A program made the translations under genes and the position numbers. The notes below the pieces were generated by a model, which worked only from the letters and a program-made list of their open reading frames with translations, was not told the origin of the DNA and made no database searches. 46,199 bases of DNA from Candidatus Daviesbacteria bacterium (GTDB lineage Bacteria > Patescibacteriota > Microgenomatia > Daviesbacterales > UBA10151), in contig JACPEX010000027.1 in NCBI GenBank assembly GCA_016183265.1, forward strand, positions 1 through 46,199, given 5' to 3'. Shown here one piece after another: positions 30,802-38,450 of the stretch. How positions within the stretch are numbered: position 1 is the first letter of the stretch; every line of letters starts with the position of its first letter.

Positions 30802-32050
30802 ATGTCTAAAAAAATTCATTTTTTAGGAATTGGGGGGAGCGGGGCGTCGGCAGTAGCGGCAATAGCCGAAGCCCAGGGTTTTAAAATCACAGGATGTGAT
30901 TTAGAGCCCAATAACGAATTTACAACACAATTTAATAGTTTACTTGTAGGTCATGATCCTAGCCACTTAACAAATATTGATATTTTGGCAACCACTCCTG
31001 CCATTTTTTCTTTAGACCCAAATAACCCAGAATTAGTCGCTGCTAAAGAAAAGGGTATTCCAGTGATGACTTGGCAGCAATTTTTAGGGGAATACTTGGT
31101 TAAGGGCAAATTTGTGATAGCCGTTGCCGGCACTCATGGAAAATCAACCACCACTGCCATGATTGCCCAACTTTTAGAGGATGCCAGATTAGACCCAACA
31201 GTCGAACTAGGAGCAATTGTGCCAAAATGGGGCTCAAATTATCGAATTGGCAAAAGTAAATATCTTGTGGTAGAAGCAGATGAATTCAATGATAATTTTT
31301 TGCATTTAAAACCGGATATTACCGTTGTTACTAATATTGAAATGGATCACCCTGAATATTTTAAGGATTTTGAGGCAGTTAAAAGTAGTTTTAAAAAGTT
31401 TTTACTGCAAACAAAAAGCACCATCATTGCAAATTTGGCAGATCCTGGAGTAAAACAAACTTTAGTCTTACACCCCAAGGGTGTAAATATAACTATTGAT
31501 TATTCAAAACATCTCATAGATTTTCCATTACAAATCCCCGGGCAATTTAATATCTTAAATTCCTCTGCCGTTTTTCAAGTAGGACTAATTTTAGGAATTG
31601 ATCCTGCTGTTATTAAAGAGAGCTTACAAAATTATAAGGGGGTTGGCAGAAGGTTTGAGTATATTGGGGAATATAATGGAGCCAAAGTTTATTCTGATTT
31701 TGGTCACCACCCCACAGAAATTGAAGTTACCATTAATGCAGCCAGGGAAAAATTTCCCAATCAAAAAATCATCATGGTCTACCAACCGCATATGTTTTCA
31801 AGGACCAAGGCTTTATTTGCTGATTTTGTGAAGGTTTTCCAAAACCTGCCGGCTGATAAAATATTTATCATTGATATTTATCCTTCCAGGGAAATAGATA
31901 CCGGTCAATCGACCTTCAGTTTTATATGCGGGATCTGCTACAAAAACTTTAGAAAAAATTAAACCGGAAATAAAACCAGGAGATATTGTTTTCTTTATGA
32001 GCGCAGGAGATACAGATAAATTAGCTAAAGAGCTCGTCACAGCGAAGTAA
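30802..32050 (+). CDS. murC: UDP-N-acetylmuramate--L-alanine ligase MurC, interrupted by a +1 frame change near 31898-31935
   Basis: GIGGSGASAVA and the P-loop AGTHGKSTTTAM. Frame 1 ends at 31962 in non-MurC sequence (QSTFSFICGICYKNFRKN*). The next frame reads VNRPSVLYAGSATKTLEKIKPEIKPGDIVFFMSAGDTDKLAKELVTAK* (stop 32048-32050), which is a typical MurC C-terminus. Confidence 0.8.
31468..31486. repeat. REP1 hairpin copy 3, in frame inside murC
   Basis: ttacaccccaagggtgtaa encodes LHPKGV. Confidence 0.7.
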
Positions 32051-34364
32051 CATATTTTTTAAATTGGTTTCCCCTGTCTGCATAATCCTTGAACAAATTA
32101 AAACTACTTGACGCCGGCGAGAGAAGAACTATTTTACCGGGGCTTGTATGTTCAAAAGCCAGTTCAACGGCATCTTTCATATTATTTACATTAAAATACT
32201 TGATACTTGATACTTGATACTTGATACATGCTTGTTTTATTTTTTCTCCTGTATCCGGAAATAGAATTAAATTTTTTATATTAGATTTTGCTATGGCTTC
32301 TCCCAAAATAGAGTAATCAATACCCCTATCAAAACCTCCGGCAATTAATGTTTCAACATTTTCACCTAAAGCTTGCAACGCTCCAATTGTTGCCTGTGGA
32401 ATTGTAGCCAAAGAATCATTGTAAAATTTGATCCCTCTAAATTCTCCTACAAATTCTAGCCTGTGGGGGAGGGGCTTAAAATTTTTGATTGCCTGGTCAA
32501 TTTCCTCCTGCGGAATGTCAAACAGTTTTCCTATAATTTTGGCTGGGGAGGAATCATCTAAACCATTTTGGGTAAAAGGTATTTTCATTGCTCTATTTTC
32601 TATTGCAACATCTTTGTTGCAGATTAAATAATCTTGTTCTGTTTGGTATTTAGTAATATTACTTTTAGCTGCAAAATACGCTGATAAATTTCCGTGATGG
32701 TCCAAATGTTCTGGATAAAAATTAGTCATTACTGCAATATGCGGGCTTTTAGTTAAACCCTCCAGTTGAAAAGAGGATAGTTCATAAACCACCACAGAAT
32801 TTTCATTTAACTCATCCAATAGATCCAAGGCTGGTTTGCCAATATTGCCTATTACATGCGCATCTATTCCACCAGTTTTTAGAACTTCATAAATCAAAGA
32901 GGACGTGGTACTTTTGCCTTTGGTACCGGTAACCCCGATAATTTGACCCTTAAAATTATCAAAAAATATTTGTGTAGCTGAGGTAATAGTTTTTCCTTCA
33001 TTTTGGGCTTTTCTAATTTCCGGCAAATAAGGAATACCGGGGGATTTAATAATCACATCATAATCTTTTAACTTGTCTAAATAATTTTCTCCATCACTTT
33101 TATCTGTAATGCCGATTTCTGTATTGGGAAAATGCTTTTTATAATAATTTAGAGTTGCCTTGCCTTCCCGCCCAAACCCTAAAATTAAAACTTTCTGGTT
33201 AATTAATGAAAGTGCAGTCTTTATTTCCTCAACTGTTGCAACACATTCAAAAGGCTTAACGACATCATTTTCCCTAAGCAGCCCTTTGATAATTGGTTCT
33301 AAACTTTTGTCTTCTAATAAATTTTTTCCAAAAATTTCGTCTGTTTTCTTGCCTAAAAATGGATAGAGGAGAATATATGTTGAAACACATTTTGGACATT
33401 TACCACACCATATTCCTTGCTTGGAACCGCGGTTACAGCTTCTAAAAATCTTGTGGTATTTTTCCATTTTGGAAAACATCTCGGATATCTGCAGTTCACC
33501 AAAAGATCTTAAATAACTAAAATAATTGGCAGAAGAAGCCAGATATTTACTAGAATAATCCCTAAAGTCTTTTTCAAATTCAGAAGTTTTAGAATACTGG
33601 TGGTTAATTTCCTGACCCATCCAGGTAACATTGCCCTCGTTGGAAGAAGCCTCATTAGAGACAACCAGATTTTTATAATCATATAAAACACCCGTTAGGA
33701 CAGAAAGAAAAGCCAGATATGCAGAAAAAGGGGTATGGCCATTTAAATATCCCTGGGCATTTAATTCCAGTAATTTTGGATCAATTATTCTTTTGATAAT
33801 TATTGAATTCTTACAGCCTCCAGCTTCTGCCATTTTTATTGCAGCTTCAGTTGGATTTAAAAGAAGACAACTATATTCTTTGCCTTTACTAATCGACTCC
33901 AGTGTTACAGCAGAATCTTTGCCGCCCCCAACCATTACCAAATCCCGGTCTTTCAACTCTCCATCAAATTTAGCCTGCAACCTGGAAGGTTGCCGCACAA
34001 ATTCCACTAAATCTTCTTTTGTAAAATCAATTTTATTGGTGTAGAAAAATTCCCCTAAACCTTTTATTAAAAGCTTCTTCCAGAACTTGATTTGGTCTTC
34101 ATCCAAATCACCTGCCTTAATAATAATTTGTTTAGGGCAAGCTGCTTTCCAATAGCTTAAAAGCTCAACCATTCCAAGATTAAAAACTAAATTATCTATG
34201 TTTCCCGGATTTTTGACATTAGGAAATATCACTTGGGGTTTAAACCTAATATCAGGAGTTAGCAAAAAGTCAAAAGTAACGTGAAGGTAGCCATTTTCCT
34301 GCTCGATTTTATACCCCTCAAAGACAAGCTGTTGGTGTTTCTGCCTTAATTTATTAAAATCCAT
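32037..34364 (-). CDS. murD: fusion protein: N-terminal PP-loop ATP-pyrophosphatase-like domain (MurL-like candidate) + C-terminal UDP-MurNAc-L-Ala--glutamate ligase (MurD family)
   Basis: 775 aa. C-terminal half: KVLILGFGREGKA, GVTGTKGKSTTSSL, NFYPEHLDHHG, PHRLEF, YNDSLATIP (MurD). N-terminal ~390 aa: VGGGKDSAV (SGGxDS-like PP-loop) and a Cys cluster SCNRGSKQGIWCGKCPKCVSTY. Confidence 0.75.
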   Translation of the reverse strand: MDFNKLRQKHQQLVFEGYKIEQENGYLHVTFDFLLTPDIRFKPQVIFPNVKNPGNIDNLVFNLGMVELLSYWKAACPKQIIIKAGDLDEDQIKFWKKLLIKGLGEFFYTNKIDFTKEDLVEFVRQPSRLQAKFDGELKDRDLVMVGGGKDSAVTLESISKGKEYSCLLLNPTEAAIKMAEAGGCKNSIIIKRIIDPKLLELNAQGYLNGHTPFSAYLAFLSVLTGVLYDYKNLVVSNEASSNEGNVTWMGQEINHQYSKTSEFEKDFRDYSSKYLASSANYFSYLRSFGELQISEMFSKMEKYHKIFRSCNRGSKQGIWCGKCPKCVSTYILLYPFLGKKTDEIFGKNLLEDKSLEPIIKGLLRENDVVKPFECVATVEEIKTALSLINQKVLILGFGREGKATLNYYKKHFPNTEIGITDKSDGENYLDKLKDYDVIIKSPGIPYLPEIRKAQNEGKTITSATQIFFDNFKGQIIGVTGTKGKSTTSSLIYEVLKTGGIDAHVIGNIGKPALDLLDELNENSVVVYELSSFQLEGLTKSPHIAVMTNFYPEHLDHHGNLSAYFAAKSNITKYQTEQDYLICNKDVAIENRAMKIPFTQNGLDDSSPAKIIGKLFDIPQEEIDQAIKNFKPLPHRLEFVGEFRGIKFYNDSLATIPQATIGALQALGENVETLIAGGFDRGIDYSILGEAIAKSNIKNLILFPDTGEKIKQACIKYQVSSIKYFNVNNMKDAVELAFEHTSPGKIVLLSPASSSFNLFKDYADRGNQFKKYVTSL
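32197..32230. repeat. perfect tandem heptamer (tacttga x4 plus a partial unit) inside the MurD-domain coding region
   Basis: tacttgatacttgatacttgatacttgatacatg. It translates on the minus strand as IKYQVSSIKY. Confidence 0.7.
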
Positions 34365-34371
34365 TAGCTTA

Positions 34372-34393
34372 ATTATACCCTACGCGGTATAAT
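34372..34393. promoter_or_regulatory. back-to-back TATAAT boxes forming a 7-bp inverted repeat (TTATACC-ctacgc-GGTATAA) in the 40-nt divergent murD-fusion/murF gap
   Basis: Plus-strand TATAAT at 34388-34393, 11 nt before murF ATG 34405. Minus-strand TATAAT at 34377-34372, 7 nt before ATG 34364. Confidence 0.45.
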
Positions 34394-34404
34394 TTAGGTT
34401 CGAC

Positions 34405-35631
34405 ATGATTAATCGATTAAAGAAATCATTGTATTTTTCTATAGCTTATTATTTTAGATTTTTTGCCCAAATACAGTTAAATATCTGGAAACCAAAAACC
34501 ATCGTCATAACTGGATCAAATGGCAAAACTACACTTCTGCATTTAGTAGAGTCACAACTTGGGGATCAGGCAAAATATTCCCACCACGCCAACAGTGCTT
34601 ATGGTATCCCGTTTGATATCTTGGGCCTCCAAAGAAAAACTTTAAACCTGTTTGAATGGCCATATTTATTTTTGATGGCTCCTTTTTCCGCCTTTAAATC
34701 GCCTCCCAAACAAAAGATATACATCGTGGAAGCAGACTGTGACAGGCCAAAAGAGGGACAATTTTTGGGATCCTTATTAAAACCTGAAGTGACTATCTGG
34801 CTTTCAGTTTCCAAGACACATAGCATAAATTTTAAAAGTCTTGATGATATCGCTTTTGAATTTGGATTTTTCTTAAAATATTGCCAAGATTACGCTATTA
34901 TTAACGGAGATAATTACTTAATAACAAAACAATTACCTAGAACAAGAGTAACCACCGAAAAAATATCCAAAAAGAACAATTTACAAGAGTACCGGGTTTT
35001 ACAAAATGCTACAGAATTTATAATTAATAACAAAGAATATTCTTTTAAGTTCTTACTGCCTGAGGATACTTTTTATTCCATAAAAGCCACGAACGGACTA
35101 TTAAATTATCTAAAAATACCTGCAAATAATTTTAGCAATTTTACTTTACCGCCCGGCAGAAGCTCGGTATTTTCCGGCATAAAGAATACAACCATTATTG
35201 ACAGCAGTTATAATGCCACCCCTGCTTCTATGGAAGCTGCTATTGATATGTATAAATTATATCCTGGTAAAAACAAATGGGCAATAATTTCAGATATGGT
35301 AGAGCTGGGGGAAGAAGAGGAAATTGAACATAAAAACCTTGCCAAATTGATCAATGACTGCGCATTAGATAAAGTAATTTTAATGGGCCCAAGAGTATTA
35401 AAGTACACCTTGCCAAATCTGCAGGGAGTTTCCCTTGAAAGCTTCTTAACCCCTAAAGAAGTATTAGGATATTTAGAAAATAATATTAGGGGAGGGGAAA
35501 CGATTTTCTTCAAAGGGGCTAGATTCTTGGAAGGAGTTATTGAACATCTACTTAAAAATAAAGAAGACATAAATAAACTTTGCCGGAGGGAAGCCGCGTG
35601 GGAAAAAAGGAGGCAACAATGGGGACTGTAA
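34405..35631 (+). CDS. murF: Mur ligase family protein, MurF-like (UDP-MurNAc-tripeptide--D-Ala-D-Ala ligase)
   Basis: 408 aa. ITGSNGKTT P-loop, IIDSSYNATPASMEAAI, ISDMVELGEEEEIEHKNL. Confidence 0.7.
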   Translation: MINRLKKSLYFSIAYYFRFFAQIQLNIWKPKTIVITGSNGKTTLLHLVESQLGDQAKYSHHANSAYGIPFDILGLQRKTLNLFEWPYLFLMAPFSAFKSPPKQKIYIVEADCDRPKEGQFLGSLLKPEVTIWLSVSKTHSINFKSLDDIAFEFGFFLKYCQDYAIINGDNYLITKQLPRTRVTTEKISKKNNLQEYRVLQNATEFIINNKEYSFKFLLPEDTFYSIKATNGLLNYLKIPANNFSNFTLPPGRSSVFSGIKNTTIIDSSYNATPASMEAAIDMYKLYPGKNKWAIISDMVELGEEEEIEHKNLAKLINDCALDKVILMGPRVLKYTLPNLQGVSLESFLTPKEVLGYLENNIRGGETIFFKGARFLEGVIEHLLKNKEDINKLCRREAAWEKRRQQWGL

Positions 35632-36308
35632 AGAAAATATTGATACTCCACGGCTGGACTTACTCAACGGAAAAATGGGGACCTTTTTTAAATGATTTAA
35701 AGAAAGACGGCTTTAACGCGGAGCTGCTTAAAATCCCCGGGCTTACTGAAAAGCTGGATGATGTCTGGGATATAGATAATTACGTTGAATGGCTCAACGG
35801 AAAAATACATGAAGATAAAATAATTTTAGTGGGTCACTCAAACGGGGGAAGAATTATATTGGCCTTTGCAGCTAAATATCCTGACAAAATTAAAAAGATT
35901 ATTTTAATAGACAGCGCCGGAATCTATCATAACGAAATGCCGATACGGTTAAAAAGAATCATCTTTAAAACCTTGGCCCGGATAGGGAGAAAAATAACAA
36001 AATCAGAAACTTTAAGAAAAGCACTATACAAGCTGTCAAGAGAAAGTGATTATGAAAATGCGCCGCCGGTAGTTAAAAAAACCATGAATAACATGATTAA
36101 TTTTGATATCACCCCTTTTTTGCGTAAAATAAAAATACCAACTTTAATTATTTGGGGGGCGAAGGATAAAACTACGCCGCTCTCAGACGGAAAGATTATG
36201 CATCAATTAATAAGCAATTCAAAACTGGCAATTATTAATGATGCAAAACACTCTCCGCAATTTACCCATCCGGAGAAAGTTACTGAACTAATCTATGAAT
36301 ATCTTTAA
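35619..36308 (+). CDS. alpha/beta hydrolase
   Basis: Start at MGTVKKILILHGW, preceded by SD AAAGGAGG. Nucleophile elbow VGHSNGG. C-terminal DAKHSP (His). Confidence 0.7.
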   Translation: MGTVKKILILHGWTYSTEKWGPFLNDLKKDGFNAELLKIPGLTEKLDDVWDIDNYVEWLNGKIHEDKIILVGHSNGGRIILAFAAKYPDKIKKIILIDSAGIYHNEMPIRLKRIIFKTLARIGRKITKSETLRKALYKLSRESDYENAPPVVKKTMNNMINFDITPFLRKIKIPTLIIWGAKDKTTPLSDGKIMHQLISNSKLAIINDAKHSPQFTHPEKVTELIYEYL

Positions 36309-37443
36309 TTCACTGGGATCTAATTACAACTTAAATTTTGTCTTCAAAAGCCTGTTTGCTGCTGGATCAAGGCAAGATAAAAAAGCGCTGGAAGATTTTC
36401 TAAATGAAAAGTTTGATGGCAAAACTCTTTTGCTATACAAAGGAAGGCAGGCAATCGAAATAGCTTTAAAACTGCTGGATTTACCAAAAACAAGTGTTGT
36501 TGCAATAAATGGTTTTACCTGTTTTGCAGTTTACCAAGCGGTTATTAACGCAGGACTTTCAGTTGATTATATAGATATTGAAAAAGGAGATTTAAATTTC
36601 TCTCCAAATCAACTTAGAAATAAACTCAAAGGAAATCCAGATATCAAAGTCATAATAATCCAAAATACTTTAGGATATCCGGCACAAGTTGAAGAAATAG
36701 CTACAATCTGTAAAGAAAACAATATTATTTTGATAGAAGATTTGGCGCATAGTGTTGGCGGTAAATTTGGAGATTTTGTGGCACTTTCCTTTAGCCAGGA
36801 TAAATTAATTGATGCAATTTCCGGAGGCGCATTAATATGCAAAAACAAAAAGTATAATTTTGATAATTTAGAAGAAAAAGATGAGATAAAAGACAGACTT
36901 TATCCGCTACTGACTTATGTCATAAGAAATACTTATTCTTTTGGACCCGGTAAAATAATCCACAAGATATTAAAAATATTAGATTTATTGTCAAAACCCA
37001 TGGATGAAAACCTGGCATTTTCAACCATCGCCCCCTGGTATTGCAATTTAATTAAAGAAGAGTTTGATAATTTAGAAAATAATTTAAATCGCAGAAGAAA
37101 AATTGCATCTATTTATTCCCAAAATATTGATCAAAAAATTTTGTTTTCAAGACTCGTAAAAAATATTCCGAATTCTACAAATTTAAGATTCCCGATTTTT
37201 GTTGAGAATAGGGCAAGTTTAATAAGTTTTTTGAAAAAACAAAATATTTTTGTTTCGGATATTTGGTATGATGCTCCAATAGCCCCTAAAAAATATATGC
37301 TGCAAACCGATTACAACCACCAATGCCCAAATGCCGAAAAAATTTCTGAAATAATTTTAAATTTACCAACACATAAAAATGTTTCGGAAAAAGATGCAGT
37401 GCAAATCTCCCAACTCATTAACCAATGGATAAAACAACAGTAA
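36295..37443 (+). CDS. DegT/DnrJ/EryC1/StrS-like PLP-dependent enzyme
   Basis: 382 aa. LIEDLAHSVGG and SFSQDKLIDAISGGALI (Schiff-base Lys context) resemble sugar aminotransferases. Confidence 0.55.
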   Translation: MNIFNSLGSNYNLNFVFKSLFAAGSRQDKKALEDFLNEKFDGKTLLLYKGRQAIEIALKLLDLPKTSVVAINGFTCFAVYQAVINAGLSVDYIDIEKGDLNFSPNQLRNKLKGNPDIKVIIIQNTLGYPAQVEEIATICKENNIILIEDLAHSVGGKFGDFVALSFSQDKLIDAISGGALICKNKKYNFDNLEEKDEIKDRLYPLLTYVIRNTYSFGPGKIIHKILKILDLLSKPMDENLAFSTIAPWYCNLIKEEFDNLENNLNRRRKIASIYSQNIDQKILFSRLVKNIPNSTNLRFPIFVENRASLISFLKKQNIFVSDIWYDAPIAPKKYMLQTDYNHQCPNAEKISEIILNLPTHKNVSEKDAVQISQLINQWIKQQ

Positions 37444-38450
37444 TAGAAATTTCGGACAAAAAAGTTTGGGAAGATTTTTTATCCAAACACCCTGAAGCAA
37501 ATTTTTTGCAATCCTGGAATTGGGGGGAGTTTCATAAAACATTAAACCATAAGATAAAAAGAAGCGGTTTTATTAAAGATAACAAACTGGTTGGCGTAAT
37601 GCTTTCAGTAGTAGAAAATGCAAAAAGGGGCAAATATTTAACTGTTCCGGGAGGACCAATTATTGATTGGCAAAATAAAAAACTGGTAACCCAATTTGTT
37701 GAAGAAATAAAAAGAATTGCAAAAGCAGAAGGTTGTGTTTTTGCAAGAGTCAGGCCACAACTTGAATCCAATGATTTTTCAAAAAATCTTTTTAAGAAAT
37801 TAGGGTTTATTGCCGCCCCCATGCATCTGCATGCCGAATTAACTTCCCAACTGGACATAACGCCTACCGAAGAACAGCTACTTGCCAATATGCGAAAAGC
37901 CACACGTTACGAGGCAAGAAAGGCCGGCTCGTTAGGAATAAAAATTGAGACCAATAGTGACGAAAAAGCTATCAAAAAGTTTTACGACCTTCAACTCCAA
38001 ACTGCCAAAAGGCAAAAGTTTGTGCCATTTTCTTATCAATTTTTATCTGAACAATTTAAAATATTTTTAGATAATAACCAGGCTGTTTTATATAGTGCCA
38101 AATTGGAAGACAAGTTATTGGCACAGGCCTTTATTATTTTTTACGGTACGGAAGCTGCTTACCATTATGGGGCAAGCACTGAAGAGGGAAGAAAATATCC
38201 CGGGGCATACCTTATACAATGGGAAGCAATTAAGGAAGCTAAAAGAAGGGACATGAAAAAGTATAATTTCTGGGGCGTTTCACCTGAGGGCGATAAAGAC
38301 CACAGGTTTTCAGGGCTTTCATTATTTAAAAGGGGATTTGGGGGAGCAGATTTTGAGTACTTGCATGCACAGGATTTAATAATAAATTATCCGAGATATC
38401 TTCTTAATTATTTAGTGGAACTTTTAAGGAAAAAAATAAGAAGAGTATAA
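37425..38450 (+). CDS. FemAB/FemX-family peptidoglycan aminoacyl (peptidyl) transferase
   Basis: 341 aa. FLQSWNWGEF, AAYHYGAS, YNFWG and FKRGFGG are typical of the FemAB family. Confidence 0.7.
   Translation: MDKTTVIEISDKKVWEDFLSKHPEANFLQSWNWGEFHKTLNHKIKRSGFIKDNKLVGVMLSVVENAKRGKYLTVPGGPIIDWQNKKLVTQFVEEIKRIAKAEGCVFARVRPQLESNDFSKNLFKKLGFIAAPMHLHAELTSQLDITPTEEQLLANMRKATRYEARKAGSLGIKIETNSDEKAIKKFYDLQLQTAKRQKFVPFSYQFLSEQFKIFLDNNQAVLYSAKLEDKLLAQAFIIFYGTEAAYHYGASTEEGRKYPGAYLIQWEAIKEAKRRDMKKYNFWGVSPEGDKDHRFSGLSLFKRGFGGADFEYLHAQDLIINYPRYLLNYLVELLRKKIRRV

Follow-up and report, generated by a model that had tools for sequence, protein, structure and literature searches.

A fused MurL-MurD2 gene in a Microgenomatia genome, predicted to place D-glutamate in the stem peptide without a glutamate racemase

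The 46,199-nt stretch of contig JACPEX010000027.1 (assembly GCA_016183265.1) analysed here, hereafter the window, comes from Candidatus Daviesbacteria and carries on its reverse strand a complete open reading frame (ORF) in which a MurL-like domain precedes a MurD2-type ligase. Judged from its sequence, the gene is a genuine MurL-MurD2 fusion whose activity is predicted from homology, and the product is probably bifunctional, with both activities directed at the glutamate of the stem peptide, and would work without a glutamate racemase. A first-pass annotation, made from the letters alone, had proposed such a fusion for the ORF at 32037-34364, citing a PP-loop-like motif, a cysteine cluster and a complete C-terminal MurD ligase. 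Both motifs are present (VGGGKDSAV at residues 145-153 and WCGKCPKC at residues 319-326, nt 33387-33410), the ligase is complete, and the assignment itself holds: the N-terminal domain matches MurL alone, while the ligase has glutamate and arginine at the positions equivalent to residues 182 and 348 of Escherichia coli MurD.

The MurD2/MurL pathway has been known since 2017, and what is new here is its fused form, borne by a member of the Candidate Phyla Radiation (CPR). Xanthomonas oryzae lacks both the glutamate racemase MurI and a D-amino-acid aminotransferase (Dat); its MurL (XOO_1319) turns the ligase product into the D-glutamate form in a unidirectional, ATP/Mg2+-dependent reaction that yields AMP, with an alpha-carboxyl adenylate as the presumed intermediate (PMC8788868, PMC5808125). 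Orthologues of MurL were assayed in Micromonospora and Salinispora, and the stated range of the route comprises some Gamma- and Alphaproteobacteria and rare actinomycetes (PMC8788868, PMC5808125). The adjacency of murD2 and murL, which the first-pass annotation had mentioned, is that of XOO_1319 and XOO_1320 (PMC8788868). No description of the fusion, of MurL in CPR bacteria or of a glutamate racemase in CPR bacteria was found in the literature, including papers that mention MurD2. The earlier expectation that a covalent fusion would be notable stands only in part: the fusion is real, but MurL-MurD fusions are common in databases, frequently from CPR bacteria, where they are labelled plain 'MurD'.

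The fusion is real DNA, since four runs of a single groundwater-metagenome study yielded Logan contigs that span the domain junction (near 33190) and show no differences or indels over 32200-34500. The same fused architecture was found in 48 of the 120 best database homologues. The AlphaFold2 model of the full-length protein (mean pLDDT, the predicted local distance difference test, 91; predicted TM-score, pTM, 0.67) is confident across the junction, where the last helix of the MurL domain (378-389) is followed at once by the strand that opens the MurD N-domain (391-395), leaving essentially no linker.

The strongest evidence for the racemase-independent function comes from the locus itself. 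The order pilB-holB-gyrB-murC-X-...-def-orf39603 is kept in the window and in four congeneric genomes, with flanking proteins 58-91% identical. Position X is occupied by the murL-murD fusion in the window genome (G000) and in G179, the two proteins being 68% identical over all 775 residues, and by murI together with a canonical murD in G138, G153 and G218; this murD has lysine at position 348 (E. coli numbering) and is 32-35% identical to the MurD half of the fusion. In G179, which is 100% complete, the fusion is the only MurD, and neither MurI above cutoff nor Aminotran_4/Dat was found. Such an exchange in place within one genus points to replacement of murI and murD by the fusion.

The distribution of the genes agrees with this. 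The survey of the class covered 251 genomes, with MurL homologues counted at E<1e-40 and MurI above the TIGR00067 cutoff, and detected MurL in 57, MurI in 67 and MurD in 193 of them. MurL and MurI occur together in four genomes only (Fisher odds ratio 0.16, p=6e-5; among MurD-positive genomes, odds ratio 0.09, p=5e-8; phylogenetic non-independence is ignored in both values). At 53 of 56 MurL loci murL either immediately precedes murD or forms one gene with it, and murI typically flanks murD in the MurI genomes of the class. Cell-wall synthesis without a glutamate racemase, as suggested in the first-pass annotation, is thus supported at the sequence level by the MurL/MurI anti-correlation, the linkage to murD and the in-place swap of murI and murD.

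Beyond the class, the N-terminal domain matches 2434 proteins at E<=0.001 among 50%-identity cluster representatives; the best 148 of these include 115 standalone proteins and about 29 MurL-MurD fusions. Other architectures are MurB-MurL, a Mur ligase with a MurC-like N domain joined to MurL, and MurL-MurD-M20 peptidase (P0157, P0122, P0137, P0205). Relatives are encoded in at least 598 species-level genomes, among them many of CPR lineages and others of Bacteroidales, Acidobacteriota and Rokubacteria/Methylomirabilia; Xanthomonadales are absent from the best 80 loci, which belong to CPR bacteria, Bacteroidales, Acidobacteriota and others. A canonical MurB-MurD fusion with MurI nearby is encoded in G121 (L088:1286-3613), and fusion of adjacent mur genes seems common in CPR bacteria.

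The MurL half (residues 1-390) is matched by the NCBIfam model of MurL, NF041275, which aligns residues 39-391 to model positions 40-396 of 447 (E=9.1e-73, 245 bits) and is the only significant family match of the domain in NCBIfam and Pfam; the precomputed Pfam assignments of the window protein are PF26298 and PF26299. The window protein keeps all 52 of the positions at which the MurL family, represented by 259 members, is at least 95% invariant. They include G147, G148, K149, D150 and S151 of the GGGKDS loop, which lies between strand 138-144 and helix 149-158, glycine replacing the first serine of SGGxDS; we infer that this loop forms the ATP alpha-phosphate/pyrophosphate site for adenylation. 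Three polar motifs contain the family-invariant residues N208, G209, H210, P212, N237, E238, S240, N254, H255, Q256, S258 and K259, which are candidate substrate-binding or catalytic residues of the epimerase. Around the five invariant cysteines the kept residues are S309-C310-N311, W319-C320-C323-K325-C326 and K370-P371-C374; the cysteines may together bind a metal, one of them perhaps acting as a catalytic thiol, and the C-terminal cluster presumably resembles the zinc site of QueC.

The N-terminal domain was also modelled separately, because the Foldseek results of the full-length protein were dominated by MurD matches. The AlphaFold2 model of the domain alone (pLDDT 94.8, pTM 0.93) retrieved no solved structure at E<=0.001 with Foldseek. 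The best credible neighbours were argininosuccinate synthetase and LarE, with probability 0.87-0.99, E 0.008-0.1 and TM-score 0.25-0.39, a likeness that fits AMP-forming adenylation of a carboxylate and is no proof of membership in the PP-loop superfamily. No sequence relative of residues 1-390 was found in the PDB, and neither QueC, TilS nor another PP-loop family was matched at E<0.01 in NCBIfam or Pfam. The profile search proposed in the first-pass annotation thus led to MurL and not to an unrelated PP-loop family. Like argininosuccinate synthetase, LarE and QueC, which are ATP pyrophosphatases of the PP-loop type, the MurL half has a glycine-rich loop resembling xGGxDS; its core fold is weakly similar to theirs, and it is predicted to adenylate a carboxylate with release of AMP. 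It differs from them in the lack of a significant sequence match, in an additional N-terminal subdomain of about 130 residues, and in the outcome of the reaction, which is predicted here to be stereo-inversion instead of the formation of an amide, nitrile or C-N bond.

The MurD half (residues 391-775) scores 321.5 bits against TIGR01087, the NCBIfam equivalog of murD (cutoff 211.95), over residues 392-775, contains Pfam Mur_ligase_M and Mur_ligase_C within residues 478-751, and in the AlphaFold2 model matches solved MurD structures with Foldseek at a target TM-score of about 0.70. It was aligned to E. coli MurD, the literature numbering being the gene numbering minus 1, as checked on the P-loop Lys115. 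The stereospecificity switch of MurD2 was located by homology modelling and mutagenesis at Glu197 (Asp182 in E. coli) and Arg358 (Lys348), and the double mutant E197D/R358K of X. oryzae MurD2 turns to D-glutamate (PMC8788868). Near the switch lie Pro433 and Phe435 of MurD2 (E. coli Ala414 and Leu416), and the K319T exchange lets L-glutamate into the E. coli enzyme (PMC8788868, PMC5808125). The window ligase carries both published determinants, E552 at position 182 and R680 at position 348; at the further pocket positions it has Ser753 (414) and Phe755 (416).

These positions were compared, together with linkage and phylogeny, at 116 murD loci retrieved from the class. Arginine at position 348 is present in 54 of 55 MurL-linked MurDs and in none of the 61 MurI-linked or unlinked ones, all of which have lysine. 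Position 319 is leucine or isoleucine in 51 of the 55 MurL-linked proteins and phenylalanine, alanine, threonine, tyrosine or cysteine in the MurI-linked ones, and Pro414 is confined to MurL-linked MurDs (19/55). Only Arg348, accompanied by Leu/Ile319 and sometimes by Pro414, discriminates the MurL-linked MurDs in the class; residue 182 (Glu/Asp), Phe416 and loss of Lys319 were rejected as diagnostic, as MurI-linked CPR MurDs also have Glu182, Phe416 and no Lys319. In the maximum-likelihood tree of these loci 54 of 55 MurL-linked MurDs form one clade (Shimodaira-Hasegawa-like approximate likelihood ratio test, SH-aLRT, 100), the monophyly applying to the class. For comparison with the X. oryzae proteins, the profile NF041275 and the residue numbers of the review served as stand-ins. 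According to the same tree the fused state has at least four independent origins.

A search for murI and for a second murD, suggested in the first-pass annotation, found neither in G000, whose assembly is incomplete and in which the fusion is the only MurD, nor in the complete congener G179; a MurI-type racemase and Aminotran_4/Dat were likewise not found in the G000 assembly. This assembly comprises 676 kb in 39 contigs, against 0.85-1.2 Mb in congeners, and its completeness estimate of 83.7% is probably too optimistic. The genes murE, mraY, murG, ftsW and ddl were not found in it with E. coli queries, and profile searches located the murE-murF-mraY cluster in G179, G067 and G138 and not in the G000 assembly. 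The missing pathway genes are therefore attributed to assembly incompleteness and not to the biology of the organism, and the argument from the absence of MurI is carried by G179.

The following order of reactions is proposed. MurC would supply UDP-MurNAc-L-Ala to the fusion, the ligase half of which would first attach L-glutamate. The MurL domain would then spend a second ATP, cleaved to AMP, at the GGGKDS loop to adenylate the alpha-carboxylate of the terminal L-glutamate, a step predicted because of homology to the assayed MurL proteins of X. oryzae, Micromonospora and Salinispora. Adenylation would acidify the alpha-proton, L-glutamate would be inverted to D-glutamate, and MurE would take the product. 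The murL-murD2 pair appears to behave as a self-contained cassette that replaces murI and canonical murD at the same locus in the genus.

Both halves of the fusion are homologous to the Xanthomonas proteins. The genes are adjacent there, while here MurL and MurD follow each other in one polypeptide without a linker, and the C-terminal part of MurL is missing. Glutamate and arginine at the specificity positions and the lack of MurI and Dat are common to both organisms, the window genome being incomplete; Xanthomonas MurD2 has proline at position 414, whereas the window ligase has serine. The host, an uncultured and ultra-small Daviesbacteria-like groundwater bacterium of the CPR/Microgenomates, stands outside the published distribution of the route. 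Compared with the canonical system of MurI and a D-glutamate-specific MurD (E. coli, PDB 1UAG/2UAG/4UAG), the window ligase has the same three-domain fold and conserves the equivalents of K115, N138, E157, H183, K198, T321 and S415, but its pocket is changed (D182E, K319L, K348R, A414S, L416F), the racemase is missing, and a second ATP would be consumed to AMP in the proposed peptide-level epimerisation.

Several observations weigh against this interpretation. The score of the window MurL is far below the equivalog cutoff of NF041275 (700 bits), which none of the genomes of the class reaches (top score 397 bits); since the model is tuned to Xanthomonadales, this counts against an equivalog by NCBI's rule and not against homology. 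The tail of about 50 residues that ends standalone MurL (model positions 397-447) is absent from the fusion. Glu182 occurs in many MurI-linked CPR MurDs as well and is hence non-discriminating here. About 74 of the 193 MurD-positive genomes have neither MurI above cutoff nor MurL, and all 20 that were sampled have a Lys348 MurD, so that the lack of MurI alone is no proof of the MurL route. The absence of murI from G000 itself is weak evidence, because the gene could sit on missing DNA. This genome also contains, on contig C15 (1486-2112, reverse strand), an ORF of 201-208 amino acids from the Asp-racemase subfamily with both catalytic cysteine motifs kept; it passes the asp_race cutoff of TIGR00035 (114 bits) and fails that of glut_race (17 bits).

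Further points of this kind bear on the stereospecificity of the ligase, which might accept both enantiomers of glutamate or mainly the D-form. A streptococcal D-glutamate-specific MurD also has Arg348 and slightly accepts L-glutamate (PMC8788868), and Arg348 alone is therefore insufficient for L-glutamate specificity. MurI and MurL coexist in G241, G043, G160 and G204, their genes being adjacent in two of these: murI-murL-murD2 are in series in G241 (C7:466426-469892), and murI adjoins murD2-murL in G043 (C3:30634-34038). In G160 (C1) MurL stands beside a canonical-type MurD with Lys348 and Phe319 and MurI is encoded elsewhere, and in G204 an orphan MurL is distant from the murD-murI pair; such genomes may represent transitional states or a second role of MurL. 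However, coexistence is rare (4 of 57), and neither MurI above the cutoff nor Dat was detected in the complete fusion genomes G179, G067, G009 and G181, which leaves no evident source of free D-glutamate. A ligase of relaxed or D-type specificity is accordingly improbable.

A slightly less probable explanation is that the MurD half is an ordinary D-glutamate ligase and the MurL-like domain adenylates a carboxylate of the stem peptide for amidation (to iso-glutamine, in a MurT/GatD-like manner) or another modification, with D-glutamate coming from the racemase-like ORF, the environment or a host. PP-loop enzymes such as the asparagine, NAD and QueC-type synthetases often convert adenylated carboxylates to amides, and one homologue carries a QueC-like name from the Joint Genome Institute (JGI); the ORF on C15 and the four genomes with both MurI and MurL could be read in the same way. 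Yet the characterised members of the family are all epimerases, no glutaminase domain or partner is seen in the fusion with Pfam and NCBIfam, and amidation leaves unexplained the MurL/MurI anti-correlation, the positional replacement of murI and the separate clade of MurL-linked MurDs with the MurD2-type Arg348. The C15 ORF is itself a doubtful source of D-glutamate, as it has an internal deletion of about 29 residues and 24-27% identity relative to the paralogues of related genomes, which also occur in MurI-positive genomes. That this ORF might be irrelevant, as an orthologue that MurI-positive congeners also possess, was considered and dropped on account of the same low identity.

That the fusion is an artefact of frameshift or mis-assembly, or a decaying pseudogene, is extremely improbable in spite of a 32-nt error in the neighbouring murC of the same assembly, considering the contigs of four runs across the junction, the 48 homologous fusions from many independent assemblies, the intact catalytic and invariant residues of both halves and the confident model.

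With L-glutamate addition followed by epimerisation as the preferred function, the fusion has consequences for the proposed use of the pathway. The literature suggests the MurD2/MurL route as a target for narrow-spectrum antibiotics because it was regarded as limited to a few genera of proteobacteria and actinobacteria; with homologues in about one quarter of a single CPR class and in several phyla, the premise of a narrow distribution is wrong. The fused protein would offer a convenient single chain for studies of the MurL mechanism and of substrate channelling, and would help to correct the annotation of D-glutamate supply in reduced genomes. The exchange of murI and murD for murL-murD2 between congeners provides a clean natural experiment, suggesting that the two routes are interchangeable. 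A wider and rather doubtful proposal is that murL-murD2 is a self-sufficient, horizontally mobile D-glutamate cassette that displaces murI and murD at one and the same chromosomal site, even between congeners, and serves about 30% of peptidoglycan-making Microgenomatia. The features of the fusion and the adjacent murC are listed in Table 1.

Table 1. Positions in the window of the fusion gene, its domains and motifs, and murC
Feature	Position	Strand	Basis or remark
MurL-MurD2 fusion ORF, complete, 775 aa	32037..34364	-	ATG start; stop codon 32037-32039
MurL-like domain, residues 1-390	33195..34364	-	NF041275, PF26298, PF26299
PP-loop-like motif VGGGKDSAV, residues 145-153	33906..33932	-	G147, G148, K149, D150, S151 family-invariant
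Polar motifs NGHTP (208-212), NE-S (237-240), NHQ-SK (254-259)	33588..33743	-	Family-invariant
Cysteines: SCN (C310), WCGKCPKC (C320, C323, C326), KPFEC (C374)	33243..33440	-	Family-invariant
MurD2-type ligase, residues 391-775	32040..33194	-	TIGR01087, MurD fold
Ligase ATP P-loop GTKGKST, residues 480-486	32907..32927	-	K484 equivalent to E. coli K115
Glu552, at the position of Asp182 in E. coli MurD and of Glu197 in X. oryzae MurD2	32709..32711	-	Alignment
Leu652, equivalent to E. coli Lys319	32409..32411	-	Alignment
Arg680, at the position of Lys348 in E. coli MurD and of Arg358 in MurD2	32325..32327	-	Alignment
murC, predicted to supply UDP-MurNAc-L-Ala	30802..32050	+	Convergent with the fusion; intact after restoring 32 nt at 31904/31905

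As assembled, murC is an ORF of 386 amino acids and its last 42 codons or so are out of frame. At 31904/31905 the Logan contigs from two runs contain 31-32 extra bases (CTTAGTCACCAGTAAACAATTAGTTGAGGCTA), and the restored MurC is intact, with 426 amino acids, and overlaps the 3' end of the fusion by about 14 nt; a frameshift in murC was thus rejected in favour of a 32-nt omission in the assembly. Within the part of the fusion that encodes the MurD C-terminal domain, a stretch of about 32 nt (32196-32229) stands out in metagenome contigs by a k-mer depth 8-10 times that of its surroundings, and many contigs end there. The stretch, an assembly hazard, probably represents a conserved motif of MurD common to many community members.

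Between the fusion and def, positions 34405-38450 of the forward strand encode a MurF-like ligase, an alpha/beta hydrolase, a DegT-family aminotransferase and a FemAB/FemX-like transferase. The MurF-like ligase is divergent and short at its N-terminus, and its score of 141 bits is below the cutoff. The genes of this cluster had no tblastn match in the syntenic interval of G179, and the cluster may be a strain-specific island that modifies the stem peptide or cross-bridge. The fusion and the divergent murF-like gene are only 40 bp apart. A perfect TATAAT is located about 8 nt 5' of the ATG of the fusion (34365-34385, reverse strand) and a Shine-Dalgarno-like sequence is absent from this interval, so the fusion may be transcribed without a leader or with a very short one.

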